From a virus (Duplodnaviria; Heunggongvirae; Uroviricota; Caudoviricetes): 37,179 nucleotides of DNA. The stretch lies in IMG/VR virus record IMGVR_UViG_2909303794_000005; one strand, 5' to 3'. The notes under the pieces are model-generated. The model ran no database searches and was not told the DNA's origin. It worked only from the letters and a program-made list of their open reading frames with translations. Below, in pieces: positions 984 to 37,179 of this stretch; position 1 is the first letter of the stretch, and each line of letters begins with the position of its first letter. The translations under genes and the position numbers were made by a program.

Positions 984-1229
984 ATGAAAAAGATTATCGC
1001 GGGTATCGTTCTTGCTCTGGGTTTGGTTGGTGCTGCAAATGCCGAACAATATGTACAGGGTGATAGTGTCAAGCGTGCTGCCGTTGCACCTTCTTTAAAT
1101 CAACTGTGTACTGAATTAGCACAGATTGCCGGAGTTGGTGACGATGACGACTTTATTACTGCGTGTGTATGGAGTCATATCGAGGATATTAATAAACGTG
1201 ATGCAAAACTAACTGGAAAGAAATATTAA
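984..1229 (+). CDS. small secreted/periplasmic protein with Sec signal peptide
   Basis: RBS AGAGGA upstream of ATG; N-terminus MKKIIAGIVLALGLVGAANA then EQ (AxA signal peptidase I site, no lipobox); two Cys in the roughly 61 aa mature part. Confidence 0.6.
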   Translation: MKKIIAGIVLALGLVGAANAEQYVQGDSVKRAAVAPSLNQLCTELAQIAGVGDDDDFITACVWSHIEDINKRDAKLTGKKY

Positions 1230-3047: not shown

Positions 3048-4223
3048 TTAGGCAGCGTCTAAGAGAGTATTAAAGTATTCATCCATTAAATCAGGACTGT
3101 CGTCATCAATACAGAAAAATTCTGGTTTATTGATGCCGTAGAAGTGAGTATGTAGCTTGAATGTATCCTCATCAAATACATCTTTCGGAGATACCCACAT
3201 ATTAGCCTCGTCCGGTTGATTGGTTAGGTAGTCATAAACCAGTTGTTGTAAGTGTGGTAACTCATCAATAGTCAGAGTTTCCGACCATCCATCCTTGAAA
3301 TCTTTGTAGGGTGCGGCGTGAGTCTTGAAGCGTTGTTTTACTTCATGCTCTAAATCGGCAGCTTTCCAACCATCCTCAAACTCATGAGTAAAGATTAAGC
3401 GGTGAGTGAAGTTGCTCTTTCTGGTTTGTTCTCTCATTCGTTCTTCTGGTTTTCGGGTAGTGATTCCAAATTTAATAAATTTGTCATCTAATAATTGAAT
3501 GTAGAAACTAGCCTTACCCTGATAAGTCCGGTTAGACAGTTGCACCAGTTGGTCTTTAATGCAAAGCGGACAAGTGAAAGAATCAGCACATCTTAAATGA
3601 GATTCCCATTCGTGGTTATGTGACTTGCAATAGGTTTTAAATTTAACATCCTTTAGGTGTGGGGTGTTTATGATGAATCCTTTGAAGATGTAAGGTGTAG
3701 TCTCGCAACGTGCATTGATGAGTGTCTCTTTGTCCTTAATAACTTCATCAAAAGTCTTGCCACTTCTTACCCGTTGGGATTTTTCAGCCATACAGATTTT
3801 ACAATCAAAATCAAAATCATCCTTGAGAGCATGTAATAGAGATGGCGTCATGATTTGATTGTGTATAGGACACAAAACACGGGCTTTTGTCTTGTTGCGC
3901 CCTTTCCATTCTCCTTGCCATCCTAGAAACTTCTTTCCCTTCTCATTACAACGAGATTCCATTTTCAACCATACAGCCTTTTCAGTCTGGAATAACTCAC
4001 CCCCGTTAGTATCTTCCAGTTTGCGTAATTTGTAGTCCTTATATTCTTGTGTGTCTAAATTGTATAACCGGAAGTAAGTATGATTACCTTTCCACGGTAG
4101 GATAAATCCACCAAATACAAAAGTAGGTTCCAGTTTAGTGATGATTCGTTGTTGGTACTCTTCCGGCGATAAACCGCGAGTTTTCTTAACAAAAGGAATT
4201 TCGGCAGCGTAAGCAAGTTTCAT
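3048..4223 (-). CDS. T5orf172/GIY-YIG-like domain protein with Cys-rich zinc-ribbon-like region
   Basis: Start chosen at internal ATG (MKLAYAAEIPF) with RBS GAGGA 7 nt upstream, not the upstream ATG of the 428 aa ORF. Motif FYIQLLDDKFIKFGITTRKPEERMREQ...DGWSETL matches the T5orf172 pattern from memory; CxxC pairs in the N-terminal half. Confidence 0.45.
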   Translation of the reverse strand: MKLAYAAEIPFVKKTRGLSPEEYQQRIITKLEPTFVFGGFILPWKGNHTYFRLYNLDTQEYKDYKLRKLEDTNGGELFQTEKAVWLKMESRCNEKGKKFLGWQGEWKGRNKTKARVLCPIHNQIMTPSLLHALKDDFDFDCKICMAEKSQRVRSGKTFDEVIKDKETLINARCETTPYIFKGFIINTPHLKDVKFKTYCKSHNHEWESHLRCADSFTCPLCIKDQLVQLSNRTYQGKASFYIQLLDDKFIKFGITTRKPEERMREQTRKSNFTHRLIFTHEFEDGWKAADLEHEVKQRFKTHAAPYKDFKDGWSETLTIDELPHLQQLVYDYLTNQPDEANMWVSPKDVFDEDTFKLHTHFYGINKPEFFCIDDDSPDLMDEYFNTLLDAA

Positions 4224-4378
4224 AGTAGTTTCCTCTAAAATAATAAGCTCACTACTATTTATTAGAGAAAATTGTCTTACTATTGCATTCTCTATCTGAA
4301 TGTGTATAATACGCGACCCTAAATCCCAAACCAACCATATTGAGGTTATGCCTATAAGTTAAAAAAAGTGAGGTCTAT

Positions 4379-4948
4379 ATGATTCCAGTAATGGCTAAAG
4401 ATATTGTTTTTACTCCTAAATCCTCCCGTGCTGTAACTCCATCGGCATTAGAACAACGCATTCTGACTCACATCAAAGATAAGGACTTACCATTAGTCTT
4501 TCATGGCTTTCTGGGTGAGTTTAAAGGGCTTCATTCAAGAATTGCTCTAACATGTACCCGATGCGGTAATAGAGCCGACAAATCAGCTACTAACCTGCTT
4601 AATGAAGGTAAACGATGTGTTTGCTTCAATAGTGACTACTTTCAATATAAAGCGGGTGTGCCTTATCTCTATGTAATGAAGTCTGGGGATATTGGTAAAT
4701 TTGGTGTTACAAAGTCAATCATCAAGCGACGTGTTAATCTGGGTGTACGCAATCCCGGTCATAACTTTGATATTGTCTTTGCTGGTGAAATGCCATCAAT
4801 GAAACATGCACTAGCCACTGAAAGAGCAATAAAGAGATTACTGGATGTGGGTATAGGCGGGATTGAATACGGCAAAACTGAAACATTCCACTACTGCAAT
4901 AAATCACTAAACAATATAAAGAATATTGCAAGTGTGGAGTGGAACTAA
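4379..4948 (+). CDS. T5orf172/GIY-YIG-like domain protein with zinc-ribbon-like N-terminus
   Basis: RBS GTGAGG before ATG 4379; CTRCGN...CVC cysteine cluster, then YLYVMKSGDIGKFGVTKS...RR...GKTETF resembling the T5orf172 domain. Confidence 0.45.
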   Translation: MIPVMAKDIVFTPKSSRAVTPSALEQRILTHIKDKDLPLVFHGFLGEFKGLHSRIALTCTRCGNRADKSATNLLNEGKRCVCFNSDYFQYKAGVPYLYVMKSGDIGKFGVTKSIIKRRVNLGVRNPGHNFDIVFAGEMPSMKHALATERAIKRLLDVGIGGIEYGKTETFHYCNKSLNNIKNIASVEWN

Positions 4949-6438
4949 TGCAAGATATTAAAATTCATTTTCAAGATTACAGTTTCGTTAAGGTTGATTG
5001 CTCTCCTTCTATCGGAATGGAATTAAGAGATTATTTCTCTTTTGAGGTTGAAGGGGCTAGGTTTAGCCCCCGATACAAGTATTCAGGCTGGGATGGACGA
5101 ATAAGACTGTTTACGCATGAAAATACCCTACCAATTGGACTATTAAAAACATTGGGTGTCTTCGTTAAAAATATGGGGTATTCAGTCTGGATTGACCCGC
5201 GATTGCTTGAGAAGGAAGATGTAACCAAAGAACAGATTGATTCATGGATTGACTCTTTAGAAGTGTATTCCGGTTCCAATAAAATCAATCCTTACTGGTA
5301 TCAGCGTGAGGCAGTCTTTCAGGGTATTCATAATCGCCGTAGAATGCTGGTTCTTCCTACCAGTGCGGGTAAGTCATTGATTGCTTGTATGCTGTCTCGT
5401 TGGTACTTAGAGCATTACACCGGAAAGGTGTTAATCATTGTCCCGACTACATCGCTAGTGGTTCAAATGAGGGATGATTTCATCGATTATCGGTTATTCC
5501 CTTATGAAGCAATCCATACAATGATGAGTGGTAGCGGGAAACATCCGGGAGACAGGTTAATCACGGTTAGTACCTGGCAATCAGCTTGCAAGATGCCCCC
5601 TGAATGGTTCAAACAATATGGAATGTTGATAGTTGATGAATCGCATAAGGCTAGTGCCAAAAATATTACCAATATCATCAATGGAATGAATCATTGCCAG
5701 TTTAAAATCGGCATGACTGGTTCCCCGAAAGAATCAAAATGCCATCTTTTACAGTATGTCGGGCTTTTCGGTGATATTTCTAAGATCGTGAGTATTGACC
5801 GCCTGATGGAAGAAGGCCAGGTGACAAAACTGAAAATTAACTGTCTTTTCCTTCGTTATACCGATGAGGAATGTAGCGCGGTTAAGGGTAGAGAATATGC
5901 GGAAGAGATCAAGTATATTACGTCTAACCCACGACGTAATAAGTTTGCTTGTAATTTGGCGCTAAAACTCGCTAAGAAGGGCGAAAACGTATTCCTTATG
6001 TTCCGCAATACTAAGCACGGAAAACTTATGTATGATGCGTTACAGAAGGTACACGACAAGGTTTATTATATTGACGGTGGAGTTAAGACAGAAGAACGTG
6101 ATGAATTTAAGAAAATGGCGGAGGGTGACACCGGGATCATTTGTGTTGCGTCTTATGGTGTGTTCTCTACTGGTGTTTCAATTAAGAATTTGCACCATGT
6201 TATTTTCGGTCATCCAGTGAAGGAATCAACTATCGTTCGTCAGAGTATCGGTCGTGCATTGCGTAAACATGGTTCTAAGGATATTGCAACGGTCTGGGAT
6301 CTTATCGATCATTTGTGTATATTTGGTCGTAACGGAAAAATCAAGCATAAAAATTATGCGGTAAAACATGCACTTGAGAGAATCCGCTATTATCTGACCG
6401 ACAAGTTCAGCTATGCAACTAAAACAATTGCTATATAA
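4948..6438 (+). CDS. uvsW: UvsW-like SF2 DNA helicase
   Basis: ATG 4948 overlaps the upstream stop (TAATG) with GGAG 7 nt upstream. N-terminus MQDIKIHFQDYSFVKVDC and later blocks (LPTSAGKS Walker A, DESH, VASYGVFSTGVSIKNLHH, GRALRKHGSKDIATVWDLID) closely resemble T4 UvsW as recalled. The ORF track's upstream GTG at 4939 is less likely. Confidence 0.85.
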   Translation: MQDIKIHFQDYSFVKVDCSPSIGMELRDYFSFEVEGARFSPRYKYSGWDGRIRLFTHENTLPIGLLKTLGVFVKNMGYSVWIDPRLLEKEDVTKEQIDSWIDSLEVYSGSNKINPYWYQREAVFQGIHNRRRMLVLPTSAGKSLIACMLSRWYLEHYTGKVLIIVPTTSLVVQMRDDFIDYRLFPYEAIHTMMSGSGKHPGDRLITVSTWQSACKMPPEWFKQYGMLIVDESHKASAKNITNIINGMNHCQFKIGMTGSPKESKCHLLQYVGLFGDISKIVSIDRLMEEGQVTKLKINCLFLRYTDEECSAVKGREYAEEIKYITSNPRRNKFACNLALKLAKKGENVFLMFRNTKHGKLMYDALQKVHDKVYYIDGGVKTEERDEFKKMAEGDTGIICVASYGVFSTGVSIKNLHHVIFGHPVKESTIVRQSIGRALRKHGSKDIATVWDLIDHLCIFGRNGKIKHKNYAVKHALERIRYYLTDKFSYATKTIAI

Positions 6439-7218: not shown

Positions 7219-7902
7219 TTAAACGTATTTCATGCGCGATTTAATGTGCTTATTGATGTTTTCAAGCATCATTGCTTCGTTGCTTTCCCACGATCCTAGC
7301 GTCGAATAACGAGTAGAAATTTTATCCGATTTAACGGCAACGATTCGCTTACTCTGTTTCTGTATGCGTTTCTCTAAGCGACGTTTTGCCACCGCCGATC
7401 CATTCCTAGCGCGTTTGGTTCGGGATTTCTTAGGCTTGTACTTCTTCATGATAAAAGTCCCTTCCTGGTTCTCTACCTTGATGAAGTTGCCATTTTCGAT
7501 GTTACGCATCATCTTACCGCCTTTGATGGCCTTAATGTTCCCGTGGGCGTCTAAGACCTTACCGTTGGCGATTGGCACTAGCTTATTGATTTTGCCACCA
7601 TCGAAATAGTGTTTCAGATAGTCATCCTGACTGCCGATCTTCTTGTCCTTATCCCTTGCGCCCTTGATGAAGATTTGGTGTCTCGTCCCTGATCGGTTCT
7701 TGTAGTTGGTATTACCTACAGCTTGCTGAGTCCAGCGAGTAGGTCTATCAACATTCTTGTTAATCTTCTTCTGTAGTGCACGAGCAGCAAAGATCGCCCC
7801 TTCCCCTATCGCCCTTTCGAATGTATCGGTTGCCTTTTCAGACCATTGCCGTAACGCTTTCTTAGTCCTTAGAGCGTTTCGTTTATTGGTACTGGTTGCC
7901 AT
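7219..7902 (-). CDS. basic Lys/Arg-rich hypothetical protein
   Basis: RBS AGGGGG upstream; 227 aa with many K/R clusters (KKYKPKKSRTKRARN); function unknown. Confidence 0.45.
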   Translation of the reverse strand: MATSTNKRNALRTKKALRQWSEKATDTFERAIGEGAIFAARALQKKINKNVDRPTRWTQQAVGNTNYKNRSGTRHQIFIKGARDKDKKIGSQDDYLKHYFDGGKINKLVPIANGKVLDAHGNIKAIKGGKMMRNIENGNFIKVENQEGTFIMKKYKPKKSRTKRARNGSAVAKRRLEKRIQKQSKRIVAVKSDKISTRYSTLGSWESNEAMMLENINKHIKSRMKYV

Positions 7903-18603: not shown

Positions 18604-19080
18604 TCATCCGGCAGTATTGAAGATTTCCTGTTTCAGCGGTTTGCCGTCCACTGCAAAGGTAAACTCTTTAGTTACCACTTCTTCATCGCCACCGTTCATA
18701 GCAACTTTAGAAATAAAGCCGTTGAAAGCGGTGCGAATACCAGTCTGTTTTGCTGCGTCAACGTAATATTCTACTTTAATCTGAATACGAGTACCGTCTT
18801 CGGCAGCTTTGATCAGTTTTTCATGTACCGCATCGCCTGGGATGTAGTTAACGGTCAGAGTCAGATCAGGAACGTTCAGCTTCCCTACCAGTTTACGGTT
18901 ATACTGAGAAGAGAAGGATTTAACTTCTACAGTACCGCGTTCGATAGCAGTTTCCGGGAATCCGGCGCACTCTTTAATTTCTTCATAGCCCTCATGGTTG
19001 AGAGCGGTGTTAGTGGTATCGGCGTGATAGAACAGACTTACCAGACCACCAGTAAAAATATCTTTAAATTGCTGAGACAT
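18604..19080 (-). CDS. putative major tail tube protein
   Basis: RBS AAGGGG upstream; 158 aa; followed by a strong terminator and a conserved readthrough extension shared with the capsid gene (see findings). Assignment is by position and expression signals, not by a recognised motif. Confidence 0.45.
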   Translation of the reverse strand: MSQQFKDIFTGGLVSLFYHADTTNTALNHEGYEEIKECAGFPETAIERGTVEVKSFSSQYNRKLVGKLNVPDLTLTVNYIPGDAVHEKLIKAAEDGTRIQIKVEYYVDAAKQTGIRTAFNGFISKVAMNGGDEEVVTKEFTFAVDGKPLKQEIFNTAG

Positions 19081-24343: not shown

Positions 24344-26347
24344 TCACTCTTCGCCAATTTTCAGAACTTTCAGAGCTTCCGGCTGTGCTACAACGTAGTC
24401 CAAATCTACAAAGATACGAGGCACTACCGCACCACGGTCACGGTATGTAGTTAGATCCATATCCAGTTCCAGACCGCCCCACTCACCGATGGTAATACCG
24501 GAGAAGTCACCCAGAACGATGTGGTCTGCCGGAATAACGCCAGAAGTAACTACTTCGTAACCAGCCAGTTTGCCGTTTTCGATGATATAACCGGAAACGC
24601 CGTTATCTTTCAGGGTAGATTCCAGTTCAGCAGCAGTTGCACCGCTCATCGCAAACTTGATCGCCTGAGCAGGAACGCCAGCGTCGGTCAGTGCTGCAAT
24701 TTCTTTCAGGAAGTCTTTGTAAGAGAAAGCAGCTTTCTTGGTAACGCGGTTAGCGTCTACCAGTTGCTTAACCAGACCAGCCGGACCACGGTCGTTAGCT
24801 TTATCAGACAGAATCAGTTGTTCCAGTTTGATGCGAACAGCTTTGTTAATGTGATCAGTGATCAGGGTAGCGATGCCCGGAACGGTTTTCAGCGACTGAC
24901 GGCTGATCGGGTTGCCACCAGCAAAAGTCTTAGGAGACAGTTTCACGTTTGCAAATTCAGCTTTGCCTTCCGGTGCAGCACCGTTTTCATCAACGAAGCC
25001 GAAAGCGTCAACGCTGGATTTAGTCATTTTTGGAATAGCGGTCGGGGAGTTCAAGCCACTGTAAACAGTCACACCCAGACGACCCAGAACAGATTCCGGC
25101 ATCAGCATTTCGATGTAGGATTCAGTCATCAGTTTTTCGTCAGTGATAGCGGTCAGGTCGGCTTTGGTGTTACCAGCAGAAGCAGCACGCATAGCAGCAG
25201 CCGGAACGAATACAGAGCCACCGCGAGCAGCACGACCACGCTGCATTGCAGCACCAGCAGCCATAGCGGAATATTCAGCTTCGTTAGCACCCAGAGCAGC
25301 ACCATCTACCAGAGAGCGAATTACGTTGTTCAGGTCAAAAGTTTTTTCCATTTTAGAGTCCTTAATTTGTTCGTTATTACGTTGAGCATTGACGAGATTA
25401 TTTAGTGCCTTAGTGCGGAATGCTTCCGGCGTCATGTCTTTAATTGCCAATGCGCGTGCTAATTCAGAGTCATCAATATTTAGTTCGCGTGCAATTTCGC
25501 GAATTTCTTCTTCGTCTTCTTCGGAACGTTCAGCCACTTCTTCGGTTTTTTCTTCTTCAACCGGAGCGGCTTCACGTTCTTCTTTTACTTCTTCTGTTTC
25601 CCGAACAGTTGAACTATCATCATCAACACTTTCAGGATGTTTAGCGTCTTTTCCGTCTTCGAGATTTTCATCTTCTTTATTCTCTTCAACTTGGCGCTCT
25701 TGAGTTTCTTCAACTTTCGGTTCTTTATTTTCTTCTACCGGAGTTTCTTCAACCTGAGCTGATTCTTGTTCTTCTTTGATTTCTTCGATTTGTTCTTTAG
25801 TCATATCGCGTTTAGCCCCCAAATTAACTGTGATAGTATTTAGAGAGCGATTTAAACCGACCGTATCGTCTGCGGGAACGGTGACAAATGAGAGTTCATA
25901 GGGTGCCCACTTAGTAACAATCAATTGTCCTTTGGTGTAGTCGATGTGATATTCTTTAATGTCATAACCGACAGAAATTTTTTCCATCGTACCTTCAATG
26001 ACTTTATTGCGAATATCATTAGCCAAAGTGCCATGCTTAGAGAATTTAACCAGAGCACGGCCTACGTTATCCGCATCGATTCGAGCGTTACAAACGACAC
26101 CAATGTGATTATCGAAAATATGATTGAACAGCAACGGAGCGTTATTATTCAGACGAGACAGATCAACCGCTTCCGGTGTATGTACCAGAATTTCATCTAA
26201 TACCACCATTTCTTGATTTTGCTCATCCCAGAATTGGCGCTGATAAGGCTGTTCACTGGAGAAAGCAATTTCAAATTCGTATTGATCGTTATGCCCTTCG
26301 TTAATAACTCCACCGTAACCGTTAAGATCGCGGCGAAATTTAAGCAT
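24344..26347 (-). CDS. prohead protease - acidic scaffold-like linker - major capsid protein fusion (HK97 fold)
   Basis: N-terminal about 170 aa with HK97-type protease motif ELSFVTVPADD; Glu-rich middle region; C-terminal about 350 aa with HK97-like capsid features. RBS AAAGGTGA upstream. Confidence 0.8.
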   Translation of the reverse strand: MLKFRRDLNGYGGVINEGHNDQYEFEIAFSSEQPYQRQFWDEQNQEMVVLDEILVHTPEAVDLSRLNNNAPLLFNHIFDNHIGVVCNARIDADNVGRALVKFSKHGTLANDIRNKVIEGTMEKISVGYDIKEYHIDYTKGQLIVTKWAPYELSFVTVPADDTVGLNRSLNTITVNLGAKRDMTKEQIEEIKEEQESAQVEETPVEENKEPKVEETQERQVEENKEDENLEDGKDAKHPESVDDDSSTVRETEEVKEEREAAPVEEEKTEEVAERSEEDEEEIREIARELNIDDSELARALAIKDMTPEAFRTKALNNLVNAQRNNEQIKDSKMEKTFDLNNVIRSLVDGAALGANEAEYSAMAAGAAMQRGRAARGGSVFVPAAAMRAASAGNTKADLTAITDEKLMTESYIEMLMPESVLGRLGVTVYSGLNSPTAIPKMTKSSVDAFGFVDENGAAPEGKAEFANVKLSPKTFAGGNPISRQSLKTVPGIATLITDHINKAVRIKLEQLILSDKANDRGPAGLVKQLVDANRVTKKAAFSYKDFLKEIAALTDAGVPAQAIKFAMSGATAAELESTLKDNGVSGYIIENGKLAGYEVVTSGVIPADHIVLGDFSGITIGEWGGLELDMDLTTYRDRGAVVPRIFVDLDYVVAQPEALKVLKIGEE

Positions 26348-28484: not shown

Positions 28485-30392
28485 TTAGAACGATGTTACC
28501 CAACTACGGCCTCTATTTGGACGTCTGGCGATGTTTTTACGTTGTGGTCGTGTGATTGGCTTAGTTTCTTCGATTTGCTCGTTAGATTGCGATTTAGGAG
28601 CTTCTACGGGTTCTTCGACAACACGGTTTAAGCTGTCTTTCATTGCAATGAGTTTATCCCATGACATTTTTGAAAGGACGTAGCGAGAAGCCGCTGTAGC
28701 ATACACGGCGCAGTCGAGCGCCTCGTTTCGTGTCGCACCTGGATTTTTTACCCATCTCACGCCAGTAGTAGTACGCTTAACAGATTCACTTAAAAGCTGA
28801 TCGAGATAATCATCAGGAACGGTGTCTGATATTTCTAAGGCAATATGAGGATTATCTTTCAGGTTCCTAGCCAACATTTCACGAAATGCAGTTTTACCCA
28901 CGTTAACACCCAACATAAGCAATTCATGACCACCTGTGCGGGTAGGTTTAACCGGAATGATCGGAGCGTTACCAGCAGAACTACCTTTGATAGCGTGTAA
29001 GTTCTTCCACTTGCCGCAAATACGGTATCCAGCTTGAGTGAATCGACCGTTCGATGTATCAAGGAAGCTGGCGAGCATAGGAACACGATCACCCGATACA
29101 GTAGTAAATTTGGTTTTATGGAAGTTGATTAATCTATCCCATACAGGGGATTCATATCGTTCACAGTTATGATCGTAAAAGCTACGGTGATCCAGAATGT
29201 AAACCTTATCTTTCGCTACACCTAAGATGGTAGTTTCTGCGCGATCTAATTGCTGGTCAGTACCCGCACATAAGAAAATCACGTCATCAGGGATATTCTC
29301 GATAGAAACATCTGTTTTGAGTTGTTCCAGTTCATTTGCTTCTACTGCCGTGTCCTGATCGTCGTATACCTTACCTAACACGGTGTTATAAAATGATTGT
29401 AAATCAAAGGATTGCCACGCATGACTAAAATCAACCACACAAGCGCGGATACTACTGAAAGGTGAATACAGACGGCTAATCCAGAATCCTGCTACCTCAC
29501 TTTCACGGGTTGCTCTCCACTCTCCTTGTGCTACTGCCCTGATTCGTTCCCCTTCTGTCCATGCGTTCTTACAGTGGGGGCAAATATAACGAGCGGTATC
29601 AGGATCGGGTAAGTTCTTACCATCGATGTTACGCCATTCAAATTGAACGTTTTCCCACTCGATCACCTGGTGTTCCCCGCAATGAGGACACGGAACAAAA
29701 AACATACGCATATCGCTTGATAACCATTGCTGGTTAATGCTTCCCAGCTTACTGGTCGGGGTACTGGATACGACTAATCGACCTTCATCGCCAAAGGTAG
29801 TTAAACGGTTAGCAGCCAGTGCCACCGGATCACCTTCTTCTGAGGCTGTAGCAGCATCGATTTCGTCAAGCAATCCAACCTTTGCGGTCTTACCACGTAG
29901 GGTCGATGGACTGGTTAGCGATACCATGTAAAGGAAGTGATTCGTTTTTAGCTGGAGTTGGTTATTGTTGTTAACCGCATTGCGATCATTCTTGTCTGTA
30001 ACAACGTCTTTTAATGCATCACATGCTTCGATAGACGGTCGGATCTTACCAGCGAGATATTGAGACATTTCTTTAGCGGTTGATTGTCCGATAATCATAT
30101 TGCATGGATCGTTAGCCATCTGGTTAAACAGGATGCCGTTCAGGATGGTAGTCTTTCCGATCTGCGCACTGGTCATCAGAACATACTTTTTCTTATTCTC
30201 AAGGAAAGGAGCATCAATCATGCCTTTCTGGAATGACAGCAATTTAACTTTATCCCCAGCTTGAGGACCATCTACCAGCACCATATTCGCTTCGCACCAT
30301 TCCGATGGAAGGAGTTTAGGCGGTGGCGTAATATATTTGGCTGCATTTCTGAGAATCTTTTTTAATTTGGCCTTATTAGAAATCAGTTTCAT
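28485..30392 (-). CDS. terL: terminase large subunit (lambda gpA family)
   Basis: Walker [10 protein letters not shown], paired CPHCGEH...CPHCKN zinc-finger typical of GpA-type terminases, C-terminal nuclease region; RBS GAGGGT upstream. Confidence 0.9.
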
Positions 30393-30477: not shown

Positions 30478-31080
30478 ATGCTAATTAATCAGCAACAAAG
30501 AGATGAATTAGAATTAGCCTTGTCTTGTACCGATCATGAATATCGTTTGCCAGTTAAGCATAAGCATTTAAAAACCGACTACACTACATCTGGCTTTAGT
30601 CGTGAGGAAGCGAAAGAGATTTTAATAGAATTTTACCGCGATAATGGTTATACAGACGTTCACAACTTCTTTAAGAAGCATAGAACATCGCATACAGAGT
30701 TTCGGAGAGTCCGAGATTGGTTTGATTTTGATATCAAGCGTTATTATCGCATTGATGACGGTCCTATCTATCGGTTGCAGTGGAAGCCGATCCGAGAAGT
30801 GTTGAAACAGAAGAGATTGAATCACGCAATTACACGCTATCGTAACGAGGCTTTCAAGAAAGGCTATGGTGATACAAGGGAACTATTCGTTGAACTCGCT
30901 AACGTGCGTTATAGCCACTATTACAACGATCCTAAAGGGTTCTTTGAAGTGCTTCGCAAGGTTGATATTAGTCGGGGTACATACTATTCACGGTTGAAGA
31001 AGTACGGGATTAAGGCAGAGTTCTTTATGTCGGTTGACGATGGAGAACTTTTTCCTATAAAATGTAAGTCCTCTAAATAA
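30478..31080 (+). CDS. hypothetical DNA-binding protein with C-terminal HTH-like motif
   Basis: RBS AAAGGGGG; C-terminal [15 protein letters not shown] resembles the HTH of the two small proteins at 31116 and 34720. Confidence 0.45.
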
Positions 31081-31115: not shown

Positions 31116-31343
31116 ATGACTACTAAAGCTACTCGCGGTCGCCCTGCCCGTTTTAACGCTGAACAGATGGCTGATATTGCCTACGCTTACTATACAGCGG
31201 ATCGTGGTAAGGAAGCGAAAGAACAGATTCTTAGTGAACATGGGATCTCAATCGCCCAATTCTATAAGAATATGAAGAAGTTAGACATTAAATTCTATGT
31301 TCAGATCGGTGATGGTCAGATCGTAGAAGCAACAGGTTTTTGA
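31116..31343 (+). CDS. small AT-hook/HTH DNA-binding protein
   Basis: ATG 31116 has better SD spacing (GGAG 9 nt upstream) than in-frame ATG 31110 or GTG 31083; KATRGRPARF (AT-hook-like) and GISIAQFYKNMKKLDIK (IS3 OrfA-like HTH). Confidence 0.5.
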   Translation: MTTKATRGRPARFNAEQMADIAYAYYTADRGKEAKEQILSEHGISIAQFYKNMKKLDIKFYVQIGDGQIVEATGF

Positions 31344-31473: not shown

Positions 31474-31499
31474 CAAAAAAGCCCCTGAAATTCAGGGGC
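31474..31499 (-). terminator. rho-independent terminator after Rha-like operon
   Basis: 9 bp arms GCCCCTGAA / TTCAGGGGC followed on the minus strand by TTTTTTGTAT; the arm sequence is the same motif as the 34017-34201 iterons. Confidence 0.55.
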
Positions 31500-31507
31500 A
31501 AAAATTA

Positions 31508-32338: not shown

Positions 32339-32427
32339 AGTATTAATTCCCCTTAAACGGTTTAATGATTTGGTCCTCCTAGTTCCGGCAGCATCACCGG
32401 AACAATTTTATTTATAATAGAAATTTA

Positions 32428-32760
32428 TTACCAATCGATTTCTACTTGGTCTTCTTCATAATAAGGAATCGCATATTCATAACGCCAGTTTTCGATGATT
32501 TCACGTTCTTCATTAGTAAGAAGGTGATTGCTAACTGGAGTCGCATTGTGATTACCAGCTTCGAATTGTTCGCGAACTTCCAGCATTGCATGAATACCAG
32601 TTAAGGACATCAGATCAAACGGAACATGCATACTACGGGAGATTGTTTCACGGGATACGCCCCAATCATTTTCTACATGGCTAGGGCTTACAGAAACGGT
32701 TTTGCCGGAGATTTTAACAGTCCAGTCATACAGGGATTTAGTGATGGTAAATTCTTTCAT
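32428..32760 (-). CDS. hypothetical protein
   Basis: RBS AAGAGGA upstream; 110 aa; first gene after the promoter/operator at 32817-32858. Confidence 0.45.
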   Translation of the reverse strand: MKEFTITKSLYDWTVKISGKTVSVSPSHVENDWGVSRETISRSMHVPFDLMSLTGIHAMLEVREQFEAGNHNATPVSNHLLTNEEREIIENWRYEYAIPYYEEDQVEIDW

Positions 32761-32816
32761 GTTACATCCTCTTTACAAATCTAGGTCAAATAGGTTCAAA
32801 GTTGTCAAGTGCGATA

Positions 32817-32845
32817 ATCATAAAAAAGTCAGAAAATTTTGTCAA
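32817..32845 (-). promoter_or_regulatory. sigma70-type promoter (minus strand)
   Basis: Minus-strand TTGACA, 17 nt spacer, TATGAT; about 55 nt upstream of the 32760 start. Confidence 0.5.
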
Positions 32846-32858
32846 TACCCCTTGACAA
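32839..32858. promoter_or_regulatory. palindromic operator-like site overlapping the -35 element
   Basis: TTGTCAA TACCCC TTGACAA, perfect 7 bp inverted repeat; more TTGAC/GTCAA half-sites at 32790-32880. Confidence 0.45.
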
Positions 32859-32880
32859 GACGCCAAAGGGTTGACCTAAC

Positions 32881-33333
32881 TTACAGCATATCTAAGCCTT
32901 CATCGTAACCGTAGAAGCCATTCTGAGAAGAGAAACAGATTGGCGCGTAGTCGTCGTCATCTTCGTCTTGTTCATCTCGTTCTGGGGCTTCCTGAGCGGG
33001 TTGTTTACCATAATCAGCCATAATCTGGTCAAGATCGGCGATCCCATAGTAAGAGCCTAAATCAACGTCATATTCACGAACATCAAACGGCAGGTCATCA
33101 CGAACAATAATTGCCGGAATGTTGTTGTATTGTTCACGACCTTCATCAGTAAAGCAGTCTACGATCACCGTAGGGCGACCATTACGTTTAAGAGCATAGA
33201 AAGCAGTTGAGAAATTGGAGTCTTCGGAATGACGAATGATGTTATAACCACGATTAGCGAAAACATGCATCATAGCCAGATTATCATCATGGTTCAGACC
33301 CAGAAGAATGAAAGGAGTTTTAGTATTGATCAT
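32881..33333 (-). CDS. hypothetical acidic protein
   Basis: RBS AGAGGA upstream; 150 aa with Asp/Glu-rich C-terminal region. Confidence 0.45.
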   Translation of the reverse strand: MINTKTPFILLGLNHDDNLAMMHVFANRGYNIIRHSEDSNFSTAFYALKRNGRPTVIVDCFTDEGREQYNNIPAIIVRDDLPFDVREYDVDLGSYYGIADLDQIMADYGKQPAQEAPERDEQDEDDDDYAPICFSSQNGFYGYDEGLDML

Positions 33334-34016
33334 AGTGGAAATCCTCTAAAAAGTGAATCAAAGTAAGTTCACTATTATTTATAACGAGAAATTTTTGTCT
33401 AATTTGAAAGGAATTGGTATTCAGTCGGCTTCGCCTCCTTCATAGATTTTGATTAAATCATCATCAAAACGAAGAAGTATCTTTAGAATATAAGAATCTT
33501 TCTTTTGGAGAAATAATAATCCGGAAGCAATTTAGCAACCGAAGGTTGCAATCCCGAAGGGATACCAATACCTTTCATGATCATTAAAGTGATCTAGAAT
33601 CATCTAGTAACCAGTTAACTACTATTATCTTCAAAGTGATTATTACTATCTTTCTAGAATCAGTTAGTAACTAGTTTAAAATCCCTTTCAAGAAAATCCT
33701 TTCAAAAGTGATTCTCGATGCCACGCAGTGGCGTCGCAGACGTTTGAGAGTGAGCGAAGCGAGCGAGCAAACTAGTTAATTCCTTCTAAGACCATCTAGT
33801 ATCATCTAGTTTAAATTAGTGTTACTAGAAGTAATTGGTTAGCGCTTCGCGCAGTCGGGCTACGCCCTCCTAATATCTTTTTGGTTATTTGTTGTTTTTG
33901 GTTTTACACATGAGCGTAGCGAATGTGTTATATAATATCTATGCACGCCCGATTCCCCGTTTTTGCCCCTCACTAAGTTAATGTTTTATAAAGAGTTTTT
34001 CTTACCAATCCTTTTC

Positions 34017-34201
34017 GGGGGCAAATTTCAGGGGCAAAAATTAGATTTTCAGGGGCAATTATTGGCATTTCAGGGGCAAAAATGAGGGGCAAAATCACCG
34101 TTTCCCAGAATTTCAGGGGCAAAAATATTGGGTTTCAGGGGCAAAAATGGGATGTGGAATCTAGGGTATTTTGGTTCAGGGGCAAAAATTCAGGGGCAAT
34201 T
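34017..34201 (+). repeat. iteron array: 9 direct copies of (TTC)AGGGGCAA(AAAT)
   Basis: GGGGCAA cores at 34018, 34031, 34052, 34073, 34086, 34116, 34138, 34179, 34193, spaced 13-41 bp; an inverted copy at 33961-33969. Confidence 0.8.
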
Positions 34202-34240
34202 TTCATAGTGTAGGGCTAGTGTAGGTTTGAAAATCCTTTG

Positions 34241-34298
34241 TTGACACTGTGTAGGATCGGTGCTACACTTGACAATTAGAGAAAAAATGTGGTATAAT
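34241..34298 (+). promoter_or_regulatory. tandem strong sigma70 promoters
   Basis: TTGACA (34241) -17- TACACT, and TTGACA (34269) -18- TGgTATAAT (extended -10, 34290-34298). Confidence 0.65.
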
Positions 34299-34662
34299 AT
34301 TTGTATTGAAAGTGAAAATTTACCGATTTTCCTTCCTATTGTTATCACCGTGTTAAATTGTTATATGTCTGTGAAGATTTGGATCTGAGAGAAAATCTTG
34401 TAACAAATCTTTACAATTCATAGCTCAATTAATGCTCACCGCTTTAGCAAAAAGTGCTATGCAATTTTCTAAATTGATTGAATAAACATCAATTTGGTTA
34501 ATTCGTGTTCTTCTCTTTAGCAATTCGTGCTGCGGTTTAACACATTTAACACGTCTGATAACATCTGAATAACATTTTAACATATCTCTGTTATAAATAC
34601 ATATATAAGAGATAAATGTGAGGGGTTGAAAAATAAAATACAATCCCCATATAAATAATAGT

Positions 34663-34683
34663 GAGCGGTTAACGCTCTTTTTT
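34663..34683 (+). terminator. weak terminator/attenuator before the 34720 gene
   Basis: GAGCG GTTAA CGCTC followed by TTTTTT, located before the AGGAGG RBS. Confidence 0.45.
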
Positions 34684-34719
34684 AAGAAATCATTAATCCA
34701 CATTGTAGGAGGATTCGAG

Positions 34720-34902
34720 ATGGCACGACCTGTTAAGTTCACTCGCGAAATCATCTTAGAAATGGCTAAACGCTACTTTGAGTTAACGCCGGGTGTGAGA
34801 ATTGAAGAGTGGTTTAAAAATGAGGGTATCGATAAATCAACCTTTCATAAACTCTTAAAGAAGTATGACATTAAAGTAAAGATTACCGCCGAGGTCTGGT
34901 AA
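34720..34902 (+). CDS. small HTH DNA-binding protein (paralogue of 31116-31343)
   Basis: Strong RBS AGGAGG 7 nt upstream; MARPVKF...NEGIDKSTFHKLLKKYDIK parallels RGRPARF...HGISIAQFYKNMKKLDIK. Confidence 0.5.
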   Translation: MARPVKFTREIILEMAKRYFELTPGVRIEEWFKNEGIDKSTFHKLLKKYDIKVKITAEVW

Positions 34903-34944
34903 TAACCTTTCACTGAGAATTATATGATGGCTTTAAAAATAAAA

Positions 34945-34978
34945 AAGCCTCCCTTGTTGCAGCAAAGGAGGCTTTTAG
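34945..34978 (+). terminator. rho-independent terminator
   Basis: AAGCCTCC ... GGAGGCTT stem followed by TTTT. Confidence 0.6.
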
Positions 34979-35021
34979 CATGAAACATTAAAACTAACAC
35001 AGAGTATTCAGGAGTATTTAT

Positions 35022-35963
35022 ATGTTATTTTCCGCTAACTTTTTCACTAACGAAGTAACCAACGCTAAAGCAGTTATCAAATTTGGCACCGAAGCAAACA
35101 AGAAGATTCAGCCGAAAGTTGTTGCTCATGTTTCCTTTGCACAGCAGAAATCCGCTTTCGCTGGCTTTAAAGCACATCGTGAAGCACTGATCGCGGCTGG
35201 CTTTGGTGTTGACGGTAAACTGCCTAACGGCATTCGTAAAGCAATCGACCGCGTTAAACCTGCTAAAGACGTTGCAGTAGACCACATCGTTACTTTTACC
35301 GTTAAGAACTCTTCTGAACTGTTCCACCTGGTTATTGCTGGTGATACTGCTATCGTTTCCGCTCCTAACATGGATTTTCAGGATACCGCTGATTGCCAGA
35401 TCACCTTCGGTCGTCGTAAAGAAGTTACCGGAAAAGCTAAACTGAACTTCACTAAATCCGGCAATCCTTACTTTGCTGTATTCTTTAACAGCCACGCTAC
35501 CGAAAAAGAAGTTGTAGAACTGGTTGCTTATGAAGGTGAAGAGAAAGAACGTATTGAATCTTGCGAAGCATTTCTGGAACTGGAAGCACAGGTGAATGCT
35601 GTTTCTCCTGTTGTAGAAGATCGCTTTGCTGCACTGGAAGCACAGATCGCAGAACTGAAAGCTGCGCTGGAAGAAAAAGACCAGATTATCGAAGCCCAGA
35701 AAGCTGAAATTGAAGAACTGAAAGCTAAAGAAGTTGCTCCGGTGGCAGTAGTTGAAAATGCGGCTGATGAGGCCGCAAATGATGAAGTAGAAGTGAAAAT
35801 CGATGTGATGCGTGATCCGATGGCTGCACTGCAATTACTTCGTTCTTTTAAGGGCAAATCTCATTTTTCTAGTGATGTAGAAGATGAGGAAGAAGAACAG
35901 AAACGCAATGCTGCAATGCTTCATGATGAAATGTACGGTACTAACTTTTCTTACTGCCAATAA
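35022..35963 (+). CDS. acidic coiled-coil protein with host-like (high-expression) codon usage
   Basis: RBS AGGAG 8 nt upstream; 313 aa; heavy use of CTG, CGT, GCT, GGT, GAA, AAA codons unlike the AT-rich surrounding genes; Ala/Glu-rich heptads and acidic C-terminus. Confidence 0.6.
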   Translation: MLFSANFFTNEVTNAKAVIKFGTEANKKIQPKVVAHVSFAQQKSAFAGFKAHREALIAAGFGVDGKLPNGIRKAIDRVKPAKDVAVDHIVTFTVKNSSELFHLVIAGDTAIVSAPNMDFQDTADCQITFGRRKEVTGKAKLNFTKSGNPYFAVFFNSHATEKEVVELVAYEGEEKERIESCEAFLELEAQVNAVSPVVEDRFAALEAQIAELKAALEEKDQIIEAQKAEIEELKAKEVAPVAVVENAADEAANDEVEVKIDVMRDPMAALQLLRSFKGKSHFSSDVEDEEEEQKRNAAMLHDEMYGTNFSYCQ

Positions 35964-35966
35964 AAA

Positions 35967-35986
35967 AGGGACTCCGAAGAGTCCCT
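35967..35986. terminator. bidirectional terminator hairpin
   Basis: AGGGACTC CGAA GAGTCCCT, preceded by an A-run and followed by T-rich sequence. Confidence 0.55.
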
Positions 35987-36060
35987 AGTAAGTTTAGGTT
36001 AGGTTGCACAACAAAGATGAGGTTATAATGAACATAATGCTACATTATCTAGTAAAGCCA

Positions 36061-36087
36061 GAAAAATAACCGCCCCTTTCGAGGCGG
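36061..36087 (-). terminator. rho-independent terminator (minus strand)
   Basis: Minus-strand CCGCCUC GAAA GGGGCGG (GNRA loop) followed by TTATTTTTC. Confidence 0.55.
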
Positions 36088-36245
36088 GAGGATTAATACT
36101 CAATCTATACTTGTTATGTTTTTATGTTGTATAGTCACTGACTATGAAAACACTGTACTGAATGTGTTTTATGGCTTTTAATCGGGAACTCTCTTTCGAA
36201 AATTCCCTGTTAAAACCACATAAGGAGAAATGGCAGATTACAATA

Positions 36246-36530
36246 TTATTTAGTCTGTTTGAAAACAAACGTTAAAAATTCGATTAAGCAATATACCCAG
36301 CATACAGTAAGCAGTAGATGCATAGAAATAGCCGGATGGAAGTTAAAAAGTGTCATACTAACTAGACCAACAATATAAGAAATCCCTTCGACAATTAAAG
36401 CTAGACTAGAAAATGCAACAAACGCACCTAAGAATAATTCAGCACGTTCTCGATTTTCGGTTCCGAGTTTATAAGCAGAAATAACAGCCAGAATAGTAAT
36501 GATGACAGCATAGGTAATAAAAGTAGCCAT
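36246..36530 (-). CDS. small membrane protein with three predicted transmembrane helices
   Basis: RBS AAGAGGA upstream; 94 aa with three hydrophobic stretches of about 20 residues. Confidence 0.45.
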   Translation of the reverse strand: MATFITYAVIITILAVISAYKLGTENRERAELFLGAFVAFSSLALIVEGISYIVGLVSMTLFNFHPAISMHLLLTVCWVYCLIEFLTFVFKQTK

Positions 36531-36556
36531 AGTTTTATATCCTCTTAAAAGTTAAG

Positions 36557-36575
36557 CGGGGGAGAACATCCCCCG
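36557..36575 (-). terminator. GC-rich hairpin after terminase-small-like gene
   Basis: CGGGGGA GAACA TCCCCCG, same hairpin family as 19111-19129. Confidence 0.4.
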
Positions 36576-36624
36576 TAGACGTTGACCCGTTCAACATCTT
36601 TCATACATTTATTTATAACGCGTT

Positions 36625-37179
36625 TTAAGACACATCAAATTCATCGTCTTCTTCTGGTTCTTGTTCTTCCGGTTCATCCATTAATGGTAATTCTTCTTCC
36701 TCGTCTTCTCCCAAATCTGCATTTTCGAACAAGTCCCCTACTTCATTTAAACGACGCTCGATGATCTCCCTTAGCTTATTCTTCAATGTTTTCTGATCAG
36801 TGGCAGATTCAAGAATTTCTAAAGCGTCGATTGTGGCGATCTGCAAAATAGTCTGTTTCACCTTCCCGCAATATTCCGCTAGTTCCTGTTCTACATAACC
36901 GACCGGAATCAGGAGATTCATTGCTTCCTGGTTCTCTCGTTCGGCTGCATCCGCTAATGCTCTCTCACGGCGTAATTTCTCTACGTCGATTTGTTCCTTG
37001 ACAGTAGTTTCTTTAAGCGGGTTGATAATATTTTTCAAGACCCATTCTGTTCCTTCTTTGGCTGGCACGCGTCGTGTATTGGTATTAAATGGCATTCCTC
37101 GTTCTTGCCATTTCTTAGCGGCGTTGATTGTATAGCCGTATAAACGGGAAATTTCTGTAAGGGTTAATTCTTCTTTCAT
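36625..37179 (-). CDS. terminase small subunit-like protein (Nu1-type HTH); start at or beyond window edge
   Basis: N-terminal LTLTEISRLYGYTINAAKKWQERGMPF then EKLRRERA resembles lambda Nu1 (winged HTH, W.E.GMP) as recalled; acidic C-terminal tail. Confidence 0.55.
   Translation of the reverse strand: MKEELTLTEISRLYGYTINAAKKWQERGMPFNTNTRRVPAKEGTEWVLKNIINPLKETTVKEQIDVEKLRRERALADAAERENQEAMNLLIPVGYVEQELAEYCGKVKQTILQIATIDALEILESATDQKTLKNKLREIIERRLNEVGDLFENADLGEDEEEELPLMDEPEEQEPEEDDEFDVS

Follow-up and report, generated by a model that had tools for sequence, protein, structure and literature searches.

A highly codon-adapted Escherichia coli prophage protein that may bind a type-specific repeat array upstream of its gene

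The 37,179-nucleotide stretch of DNA analyzed here (IMG/VR record IMGVR_UViG_2909303794_000005; in the following "the window") corresponds to roughly one complete temperate prophage of siphovirus type, ca. 37 kb long and inserted in the ycdX gene of Escherichia coli. The same 37 kb lie between the split halves of ycdX in E. coli 2017.18.04CC (NZ_AP027850; 97.8% identity over the 3.9 kb tested). Between its genes for the large (terL) and small (terS) terminase subunits, the prophage carries a 6-kb block with a Rha-family gene, several small open reading frames (ORFs), a 1.4-kb non-coding region (33334-34719), and then the subject of this study, a plus-strand ORF of 313 amino acids at 35022..35963 that is annotated only as "hypothetical protein". 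It is the second gene of a conserved two-gene cassette composed of a consensus sigma-70 promoter, a long leader, a gene encoding a 60-amino-acid helix-turn-helix (HTH) protein, and finally the ORF. The late genes lie on the strand opposite to this cassette, and short direct repeats form an array 0.8-1 kb upstream of the ORF. Because the array and the N-terminal domain of the ORF product change together among related prophages, we tentatively favor the view that this product is an abundant, sequence-specific array-binding protein, most likely an origin binder akin to the O protein of phage lambda. The locus comprises the following features:

33959..34204: type-A direct-repeat array with nine GGGGCAA cores on the plus strand and one inverted copy at 33963
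34241..34298, plus strand: two tandem sigma-70-type promoters
34269-34298, plus strand: the downstream one of these promoters, TTGACA-18-TATAAT, matching the consensus at 12/12 positions and carrying a TG extension; it heads the operon
34305..34690, plus strand: leader of ca. 390 nt
34663-34685, plus strand: conserved hairpin with T6 at the end of the leader, GAGCGGTTAACGCTC-TTTTTT, followed by TTAATCCACA
34720..34902, plus strand: ORF for a basic HTH protein of 60 amino acids (HTH_Tnp_1, E = 0.0015), the first gene of the cassette
34943-34976, minus strand: conserved intercistronic hairpin whose T-run makes it an intrinsic terminator for this strand
35010..35021, plus strand: ribosome-binding site AGGAG with an A/T spacer of 7 nt
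35022..35501, plus strand: codons 1-160, N-terminal domain, basic and predicted to be beta-rich with two to three helices; the type-specific module
35502..35771, plus strand: codons 161-250, acidic, Ala/Glu-rich, and helical, with a coiled coil of ca. 40 residues (approximately residues 197-237)
35772..35963, plus strand: codons 251-313 and stop codon, acidic low-confidence tail (DVEDEEEEQ...) that ends in AAMLHDEMYGTNFSYCQ, with a codon adaptation index (CAI) of 0.42
35967-35986, minus strand: hairpin GGGACTC-CGAA-GAGTCCC directly 3' of the stop codon, with a T-run and a UUCG loop on the minus strand
36070-36087, minus strand: second terminator for this strand, which also carries its GNRA loop, located downstream of the convergent unit of terS and a gene of 94 amino acids

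Variation among 16 E. coli copies of the prophage is dominated by third codon positions (18, 6, and 49 variable sites at codon positions 1, 2, and 3), which establishes the plus-strand ORF as a real gene; an ORF of 269 amino acids on the minus strand was dismissed as its low-complexity shadow. Within the locus, the ORF is an island of conservation (nucleotide diversity, pi, of 0.003-0.04): the encoded protein shows zero to two amino acid substitutions in 14 of the 16 copies and a heptad insertion in its coiled coil in the other two, and the flanks differ by 10-25%. The segment of promoter, leader, and HTH gene is hypervariable (pi 0.1-0.25), as is the 94-amino-acid gene on the other side of the ORF (pi 0.2-0.26).

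An initial annotation of the window, made from the letters alone, had flagged the ORF as a codon-usage outlier, and this observation holds. With the standard Sharp-Li weights for E. coli, its CAI of 0.629 is the highest among the 34 ORFs of the prophage (median ca. 0.30), followed by 0.580 for the major tail protein and 0.516 for the capsid-protease fusion. Synonymous codons redrawn 20,000 times from the usage of the prophage gave a mean of 0.387 (standard deviation 0.025) and never more than 0.495, so that the ORF stands at z = 9.8 and its codon statistics differ clearly from those of the other phage genes. The almost exclusive use of CTG, CGT, GCT, GGT, ACC, GAA, and AAA that had been described is correct for leucine (CTG 13/17), arginine (CGT and CGC together 10/10), glutamate (GAA 33/36), and lysine (AAA 23/27) but overstated for alanine (24 GCT, 16 GCA), glycine (six GGT, six GGC), and threonine (seven ACC, five ACT). 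CAG and ATC are dominant as well, and many codons do not occur at all (AGA/AGG/CGA/CGG, ATA, CTA/CTC/TTG, GGG, ACA/ACG, TCA/TCG, CCA/CCC, and GTC); phenylalanine (TTT 15/21), aspartate (GAT 12/17), and proline (CCT 5/8) are not optimized. Along the ORF, the CAI is 0.64-0.78 over codons 1-240 and 0.42 in the last ca. 70 codons, for which an origin by frameshift was ruled out because the other frames are closed. The neighborhood had also been called AT-rich, which is true of the immediate flanks (35-38% GC) but does not set the ORF apart from the prophage as a whole, with 43.3% GC compared to a mean of ca. 42%. Given this ordinary base composition and a GC content at third codon positions (GC3) of only 0.35, unlike highly expressed E. 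coli genes, the ORF is not E. coli-like DNA.

High expression of the ORF product, which had likewise been proposed, is supported indirectly by several signals. Its CAI exceeds those of the capsid and tail tube genes, the promoter of the operon matches the sigma-70 consensus perfectly, and the predicted strong ribosome-binding site was found as AGGAG at 35010-35014, 7 nt 5' of the ATG in an A/T-rich start region that is, together with this site, conserved at the nucleotide level in three lineages. The codon bias is also shared by a 50%-identical orthologue (P0124, CAI 0.72) and by three non-homologous genes that occupy the same slot in related prophages (0.55-0.71). It is thus a property maintained across deep divergence, which is best explained by selection for efficient translation. 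More generally, codon-usage outliers can flag functionally central phage genes, and on their own they do not indicate host origin.

The array upstream of the cassette is built from GGGGCAA cores that start at plus-strand positions 34018, 34031, 34052, 34073, 34086, 34116, 34138, 34179, and 34193. Most of them are spaced by 13-14 or 21-22 bp, and neighboring repeats are one or two helical turns apart. The array is bordered by T-rich and AT-rich tracts. With up to two mismatches allowed, AGGGGCAAAAAT occurs 14 times compared to 4.2 expected occurrences; a lone perfect copy is found at 31494-31505 on the plus strand, just past the 3' end of the Rha gene and 2.5 kb from the array. Related prophages without the ORF have a different gene in the same slot that nonetheless encodes a basic N-terminal domain of ca. 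170 residues, an acidic coiled coil, and a C-terminal module, again with very high CAI. The slot was never found empty, and this architecture is present in every family member examined. Together with the ORF in the window, these genes form four types that each come with their own array (genome counts refer to 5,426 complete E. coli genomes, with type D lying outside this count):

Type A: MLFSAN..., 313 amino acids (window), CAI 0.63, 36 genomes; array of GGGGCAAAAAT with 7-13 GGGGCAA copies per locus
Type B: MKNSKRITFN..., 328-343 amino acids, CAI 0.70-0.71, 18 genomes; array of TAGTGTAGGTTT
Type C: MKNVKIWFYD..., 320 amino acids, CAI 0.59, one genome; array of GTGGAATCTTGGGGATTT (also given as GTGGAATCTTGGGG) with five copies at 21-23 bp
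Type D: MKQNNFSITV..., 333 amino acids, CAI 0.55, seen in locus L036 only; array of (C/T)GGGGA with 18 copies at ca. 11 bp

The type-A array GGGGCAAAAAT is present in ca. 24 loci, including one (L002) with an N-terminal domain of only 55% identity, and the type-B array TAGTGTAGGTTT was seen in five loci. When compared by hhalign, the type-A N-terminal domain showed no similarity to those of types B and C (probability 1%; type D was outside this comparison). Pairs of closely related prophages reveal how these elements are exchanged. Between the window and the type-D locus L036, the left flank (32429-33613) is 98.2% and the right flank (35962-37179) 94.4% identical, a neighboring acidic protein of 150 amino acids and TerS are near-identical, the 94-amino-acid protein is identical, and the recognition region of the HTH protein is the same, while the array block and the large ORF are replaced. 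Similarly, a type-B locus (L031) and a type-A locus (L011) are 96% identical in the flanks and 80% in the leader/HTH segment, and the exchange is confined to the array block and the large ORF. At least four alleles of the HTH gene exist that reassort independently of array and N-terminal domain type, and identical HTH alleles are found with different array types. Other candidate proteins for the array were rejected on these grounds: TerS (with the array as cosB sites) is 93% identical or near-identical while arrays change, and the 60-amino-acid HTH protein, the 150-amino-acid protein, and another acidic protein of 110 amino acids are each conserved or reassorting across array types. Since two separated segments thus change together across an intervening segment that reassorts, a pattern characteristic of a trans-acting specificity protein and its cis-acting site, we infer that the N-terminal domain binds the array upstream of its operon.

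The protein itself was initially described as an acidic coiled-coil protein, which applies to residues 161-313 (pI 4.28, net charge -24) but not to residues 1-160, which are basic (pI 9.75, net charge +8). Its first six residues, MLFSAN, are invariant across homologues of 34-50% identity, and some alleles have a heptad duplication in the coiled-coil region. At the end of the acidic tail, a motif LHDxxYxTN[FY]S is common to the type-A proteins of E. coli and the non-homologous type-B proteins, and the type-A protein of L002, the type-C protein, and a chimeric relative (P0131) discussed below have another C-terminal domain (WNKYL...R[RK]AA) in common. The C-termini of five out of six variants end in -AA (RRAA, LKAA, RKAA, AYAA, and DFAA). 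Such endings resemble ssrA-like ClpXP degrons and would fit an unstable protein. AlphaFold2 (AF2) models reached a pLDDT of 59 for the full-length protein and a pLDDT of 72 with a pTM of 0.75 for the N-terminal domain alone; fold searches with both models returned weak and mutually inconsistent matches, none of them convincing, and we therefore make no claim about the fold. Sequence searches of Pfam-A, PHROGs, NCBIfam, PADLOC, and PDB sequences gave only weak matches of coiled-coil type below all cut-offs, such as a PHROG match to the scaffold-like part of a head protease (E = 0.009) and, as the only PADLOC match, LmuB (E = 0.004) over the coiled coil. No Pfam match at E ≤ 0.1 was obtained to antirepressor families (ANT, AntA, P22_AR_N/C, Rha, Bro-N, KilA-N), and the protein of the window does not match KilA-N, ANT, or ORF6N, nor Ocr, ArdA, or other anti-defense families. 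Winged-helix, ribbon-helix-helix (RHH), and ParB domains were not detected either, and Rfam gave no match. The combination of an OB-fold core and an acidic C-terminal tail that marks SSB and T7 gp2.5-like single-strand-binding proteins was not found.

The hairpins around the ORF had been taken for terminators that bracket it. They are real and are conserved even in 34%-identical relatives, but their T-tracts and UUCG or GNRA loops lie on the minus strand, so that they terminate convergent or antisense transcription and not that of the ORF; in this way, they insulate the cassette from the late genes. The plus-strand 3' arm of the intercistronic hairpin contains AAGGAGG and is followed by a mini-ORF of three codons (34980-34991, ATG AAA CAT TAA); hairpin and mini-ORF (MKH*, MT*, or MNN*) recur in types A, B, and C and in the loci L002 and L003. 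On the minus strand, the start codon of the ORF is overlapped by TATAAATA (35015-35022), a motif that types A, B, and C retain despite changes in the Shine-Dalgarno sequence. The element TTATAAATA occurs four times compared to 0.85 expected occurrences (32409-32417(-), 33376-33384(-), 34591-34599(+), and 36610-36618(-)); its three intergenic copies face the downstream gene (encoding Rha, the 150-amino-acid protein, and the 94-amino-acid protein, respectively), and the remaining copy is part of the leader that precedes the HTH gene. These elements may represent a promoter motif specific to the phage, or they may drive a putative antisense RNA of ca. 75 nt (from ca. 35009 to 34935), for which a scan for the sigma-70 consensus found no promoter.

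Among the relatives, L002 has a perfect TTGACA-17-TATAAT promoter and type-B leaders have TTGACA-17-TATACT. The leader falls into two largely unalignable types that have only short conserved islands in common. It has a predicted folding energy of -100.7 kcal/mol compared to -65.3 ± 4.9 in shuffled sequences (z = -7.3; minus strand -87.2). Despite this very stable fold, 12 alleles showed no compensatory pairs, nine one-sided changes, and 11 broken pairs, i.e., no support from covariation, and a role as structured RNA was dropped. The DnaA-box-like sequence TTAATCCACA before the HTH gene is kept in the window, L002, L003, and L031, with variant forms in L032 and L036. In L002, an additional ca. 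190 nt between the HTH gene and the large ORF (7690-7870) hold three perfect DnaA boxes (TTATCCACA). The 60-amino-acid HTH ORF precedes the large ORF in every lineage. Paralogue-like relatives of it are a 75-amino-acid ORF at 31116-31343(+) (…GISIAQFYKNMKKLDIKFYV) and the C-terminus of a 200-amino-acid ORF at 30478-31080(+); all three have the motif …STFHKLLKKYDIKVKI in common. Downstream of the large ORF, most other members of the family have a second ORF of 77-333 amino acids with ordinary codon usage (L002 8930-9163, L031 4086-4328, L032 3760-4620, L036 3491-4492, and L027 ca. 730-1000), which is absent from the window (type A in E. coli). Its C-terminus is conserved as …TLR(I/L)VA (GLRLVA in L027).

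More than 1,000 E. coli and Shigella contigs encode the identical protein. Among the complete E. coli genomes, the type-A ORF is always chromosomal, and five of its 36 occurrences are partial matches. The two that were inspected are truncations by IS3, and the idea that partial blastn matches represent domain swaps was rejected. These two (L005 and L006, from E. coli L73 and 14EC029) are truncated at nucleotides 620 and 262 of the query, respectively, in related prophages inserted beside hicB; of these, that of L73 is clearly degraded, and that of 14EC029 retains several neighboring prophage genes. A HMMER search of 1.84 billion protein representatives yielded only three full-length clusters, i.e., that of the protein itself, P0124 (50% identity) from a syntenic prophage likewise inserted in ycdX, and P0128 (34% identity); P0130 and P0132 were discarded as repeat-protein artefacts. 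The chimeric relative P0131, known from one metagenomic contig, is a fusion of an ORF6N domain, which is related to KilA-N, with the same coiled coil and is encoded at the same locus; its ORF6N part shows ordinary codon usage (CAI 0.235). No homologue was found in 185,579 GTDB species genomes, and tblastn searches with types A and B gave no match in 50,697 phage records or 72,556 plasmids. Scans of IMG/VR and metagenomes returned nothing beyond copies of 99-100% identity, protein searches with the type-C N-terminal domain and the P0124 C-terminal domain found no match, and searches of the literature for the WP accession and for ycdX prophages found nothing relevant.

How could these observations fit together? 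The basic N-terminal domain would be a sequence-specific DNA-binding module that recognizes the GGGGCAAAAAT repeats 0.8-1 kb upstream. Its coiled coil would make the protein at least dimeric and could thereby support a multi-copy nucleoprotein complex on the array, while the acidic tail with its conserved C-terminal motif may recruit or regulate a partner. By analogy to the cro-O logic of phage lambda, this complex would be the replication origin of the phage and the protein its initiator, which is the weakest step of the proposal. Heavy codon optimization would then reflect the stoichiometric use of a protein that has up to ca. 10 sites on each of many genome copies and may turn over rapidly. 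Among the known pairs of a cis-acting site and its protein, we rank origin and initiator first, again as a tentative choice. It is favored because no replication initiator is recognizable anywhere in the prophage by Pfam or PHROG (the only candidates for DNA metabolism being GIY-YIG/CapR proteins and a DEAD/DEAH helicase), the slot is never empty, gene order, sizes, and modular logic of the operon are those of cro-O, types A and B have the C-terminal motif LHDxxYxTN[FY]S in common, L002 contains DnaA boxes and several loci the DnaA-box-like TTAATCCACA, and the repeats are helically phased.

Several points weigh against this reading. The initiator gp18 of phage P22 has a CAI of only 0.24 compared to the extreme optimization of the ORF, and the array lies upstream of a promoter that directs transcription away from it, unlike the situation at ori-lambda. 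Neither sequence nor fold of the protein matched an initiator family (e.g., Phage_rep_O or Rep_3), DnaA boxes are not enriched in the window, and the protein of the window ends in ...SYCQ without the -AA of its relatives. The co-variation rests on four types, of which C and D are each known from one locus. Furthermore, the cassette resembles a moron in that it has its own promoter, insulating hairpins, atypical codon usage, and an orientation opposite to the late genes, which fits expression in the lysogen at least as well; yet it does not stand out from the prophage by its GC content, and the slot is occupied throughout.

Lysogenic expression is the core of the strongest rival, a prophage defense with cognate self-immunity in the manner of BstA and its aba element, which we consider unlikely. 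An abundant protein of the lysogen would bind the replicating DNA of superinfecting phages and abort the infection, the prophage's own array would titrate or switch off the cognate protein upon induction, and the existence of four types would stop related phages from exploiting each other's immunity. There is one documented precedent: BstA is a two-domain prophage protein of ca. 307 amino acids with an N-terminal, KilA-N-like DNA-binding domain. It is highly expressed in lysogeny, its gene has a Rho-independent terminator of its own, and a cognate, type-specific DNA element (aba) within the same locus neutralizes it (Owen et al. 2021, PMC8585504). The consensus host promoter, the insulation, the strand opposite to the late genes, the very high adaptation to host codons, and the type-specific pairing of protein and array would all suit such a system, as would the ORF6N fusion of P0131. 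However, this chimera is a single contig whose ORF6N part is not codon-optimized (CAI 0.235), the protein of the window resembles neither BstA nor any PADLOC family (only LmuB, E = 0.004), and aba is a single element of 63 bp over the gene start (PMC8585504) instead of an array of 200-350 bp ca. 1 kb upstream. A slot that is always filled, an operon shared with a regulator of the size of Cro, and -AA ends that suggest an unstable protein in most relatives also speak against an accessory defense gene, which would usually occur sporadically. An even smaller chance falls to an immunity-type regulator, i.e., either a counterpart of the immI region of P22 (Pant-arc-sar-ant) or the master repressor of the prophage. 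Here a small autoregulator and an effector of ca. 300 amino acids would be made in a burst from a very strong promoter, an antisense RNA would damp translation, and the effector would act stoichiometrically as an antirepressor or as a repressor that coats the array. The layout of a 60-amino-acid regulator, a conserved minus-strand terminator 46 nt before the ATG, and a gene of 313 amino acids supports this idea, as do the minus-strand TATAAATA over the start codon that is kept in types A, B, and C, the hypervariable promoter/leader/HTH segment reminiscent of immunity regions, and the failure of Pfam and PHROG scans to recognize a CI-like repressor in the prophage. Yet the protein does not resemble Ant, AntA, KilAC, Rha, or any other regulator family, scanning for the sigma-70 consensus revealed no promoter from which the antisense RNA could start, and the ordinary CAI of P22 ant (0.30) cannot explain the codon bias. 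The array would moreover be left unexplained: it overlaps no predicted promoter and its distance to the promoter of the operon varies from ca. 40 to ca. 300 bp between leader types, so that it fits an independent cis-acting site better than an operator.

Other pairs of a cis-acting site and its protein have still slimmer prospects, be it a packaging factor with cosB-like sites, a centromere-like or genome-organizing protein, or a protein that binds genome ends. Small terminase subunits and centromere-binding proteins show the same order of DNA-binding domain, coiled coil, and partner-binding tail. The array is also part of a 1.4-kb non-coding hub, where it adjoins very conserved GC-rich inverted repeats and a second repeat family (33593-33856) that could be cos. 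Against such pairs stands that a PHROG-supported TerS (E = 2.8e-15) is already present and 93% identical while arrays change, that the gene lies on the early-type strand behind a host promoter and outside of the late operon, and that the prophage encodes no partition NTPase and integrates via a serine recombinase. The initial annotation had instead suggested a protein for host takeover or anti-defense, or a recent acquisition from the host, and these ideas fared worse. An acidic DNA mimic acting on a host target, e.g., against restriction, could explain the very acidic C-terminal half (net charge -24), and high codon adaptation behind a host promoter might suit both suggestions. The N-terminal half is basic, though, its type tracks the DNA array of the phage and not a host feature, and no match to Ocr, ArdA, or other anti-defense families was obtained, nor any PADLOC, Pfam, PHROG, or structural match. 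That the gene was recently captured from the host chromosome is excluded because there is no host homologue, housekeeping or other, in the 185,579 species genomes, GC3 is 0.35, unlike in highly expressed E. coli genes, and the codon bias has been maintained over deep divergence. Taken together, we regard takeover and capture as very improbable. We give next to no credence to an abundant virion or assembly protein such as a decoration, head-fiber, or scaffolding protein. In favor of it are a CAI comparable to or above those for capsid and tail tube, a coiled coil rich in Ala and Glu that is reminiscent of scaffolding proteins, and the weak PHROG match (E = 0.009) to the scaffold-like part of a head protease. 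The gene is, however, found on the strand opposite to all structural genes in an operon with an HTH gene behind a host promoter, the capsid gene is already a protease-capsid fusion, and the co-variation with a DNA array would remain without explanation.

Somewhat more guardedly than the array-binding origin protein itself, we consider it possible that the four types represent an undescribed class of abundant phage proteins in which interchangeable N-terminal DNA-binding domains, dissimilar in sequence and each tied to its own repeat array in the phage genome, sit on a common chassis of acidic coiled coil and tail and mediate self/non-self recognition between close E. coli prophages. This class might be a new type of origin and initiator with a new DNA-binding fold, or a BstA-like exclusion system with a DNA array as its antidote. 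In the former case, it would provide a new origin-binding fold and explain how replication starts in a prophage without a recognizable initiator; in the latter, it would extend the principle of a defense with DNA-encoded self-immunity to a second, unrelated protein family. Of 5,426 complete E. coli genomes, ca. 1% contain a member of this prophage family (type A in 36, type B in 18, and type C in one), and its most codon-adapted gene belongs to no Pfam, PHROG, NCBIfam, or PADLOC family. With four natural pairs of protein and array in nearly isogenic backgrounds, the function is directly testable.

Outside of the cassette, the prophage encodes its late genes for lysis, tail, and head (including a portal gene among the head genes) on the minus strand. 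The following genes anchor its organization:

1295-2974: large serine recombinase
18604-19080: tail tube (major tail protein)
24344-26347: protease-capsid fusion
28485-30392: large terminase of gpA type (terL)
36625-37179: small terminase TerS at the right end of the window (PHROG 57, E = 2.8e-15)

No cultured phage is close, with a best capsid match of 46% identity. The closest deposited relative by capsid is Escherichia phage DCP80 (L028, PQ671644.1), a genome of 141 kb classified in the Straboviridae; this record opens with a lambda-like terL-portal-capsid block and may therefore be composite. Inside the late region, an ORF for a transposase of IS200/IS605 type (8549-9052(-); PHROG 720, E = 1e-78; GC 0.55) appears to be an insertion that is missing from the copy of the prophage in NZ_AP027850. 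CapR-homology domains are found in two adjacent proteins (3048-4334(-) and 4379-4948(+)), one of which also has a GIY-YIG/T5orf172 nuclease domain. They adjoin the DEAD/DEAH helicase (4939-6438), and this group is the sole DNA-metabolism module recognized in the prophage. Beside the integrase, an ORF of 81 amino acids (984-1229, plus strand) with a signal-peptide-like N-terminus (MKKIIAGIVLALGLVGAANA) is likely a secreted or lipoprotein moron.

Divergent from the cassette lie the genes of the two acidic proteins of 150 amino acids (32881-33333(-), pI 4.1) and 110 amino acids (32428-32760(-), pI 4.8), for which no family match was found. Their CAI is raised as well (0.455 and 0.494, respectively; 0.60 for the L002 homologue of the 150-amino-acid protein), and a DEDDDD tract forms the end of the 150-amino-acid protein. 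In the non-coding region between these genes and the array, another family of repeats with the sequence TCTAGAATCA(T/G)(C/T)TAGTAAC occurs in four copies (33593, 33653, 33785, and 33795) that are interleaved with a GC-rich inverted repeat (GAGTGAGCGAAGCG / CGCTTCGCGCAGTC, 33748-33856). Within the region, non-coding DNA is most conserved at positions 33700-33899 (pi ca. 0.01), and the pair GAGCGAAGCG...CGCTTCGCGC as well as the TCTAGAATCA... repeats recur in loci of other array types. The segment 33593-33900 is a candidate cos or TerS-binding region.

Among known systems, the arrangement of a trans-acting protein and an array of short direct repeats that defines specificity or incompatibility is familiar from the Rep proteins of iteron plasmids (RepA, pi, or TrfA) and from the centromere-binding proteins ParB, ParR, and omega. 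The present protein differs from these in that it belongs to an integrating prophage and is absent from 72,556 plasmids, in that neither winged-helix, RHH, or ParB domains nor a partner NTPase was detected, and in its long acidic tail and very high codon adaptation. The immI region of P22 is similar in its layout, with a regulator of 53 amino acids (arc; 60 here) before a protein of 300 amino acids (ant; 313 here) behind a strong promoter among late and structural genes, and with a minus-strand terminator in the intercistronic gap, where the sar antisense RNA of P22 terminates. Homology to Arc or Ant is lacking, the antisense promoter is only putative here, the codon usage of ant is ordinary, and P22 has no co-varying repeat array. 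BstA is likewise a protein of enterobacterial prophages with ca. 300 amino acids, two domains, a putative DNA binder in the N-terminal part, and high expression, which has been measured for BstA and is inferred for the ORF, and both have a cognate, type-specific DNA element in the same locus. The form of this element differs, i.e., a long multi-copy array well upstream compared to 63 bp at the gene start. There is also no homology, a KilA-N-related domain occurs in one chimeric relative only, and the ORF is co-transcribed with an HTH gene in an architecture that every family member examined displays.

Phage lambda O and P22 gp18 remain the closest counterparts under the origin reading that we favor. 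Unlike in lambda, the array is found 0.8-1 kb upstream and beyond the promoter, not within the gene, and comprises 5-18 repeats instead of four; a P-like or DnaB-like partner gene is not adjacent, similarity to O is not detectable in sequence or fold, and the CAI of gp18 is 0.24 compared to 0.63 for the ORF. What the systems share is their logic. Like lambda cro-O and its P22 equivalent, a small HTH gene is followed by a gene for a protein of ca. 300 amino acids; as in lambda O, the N-terminal part is type-specific and matched to direct repeats spaced by whole helical turns, with another part common to different types; and as among lambdoid phages, where regulator/operator alleles and initiator/iteron types reassort independently, HTH alleles are combined freely with pairs of array and N-terminal domain.

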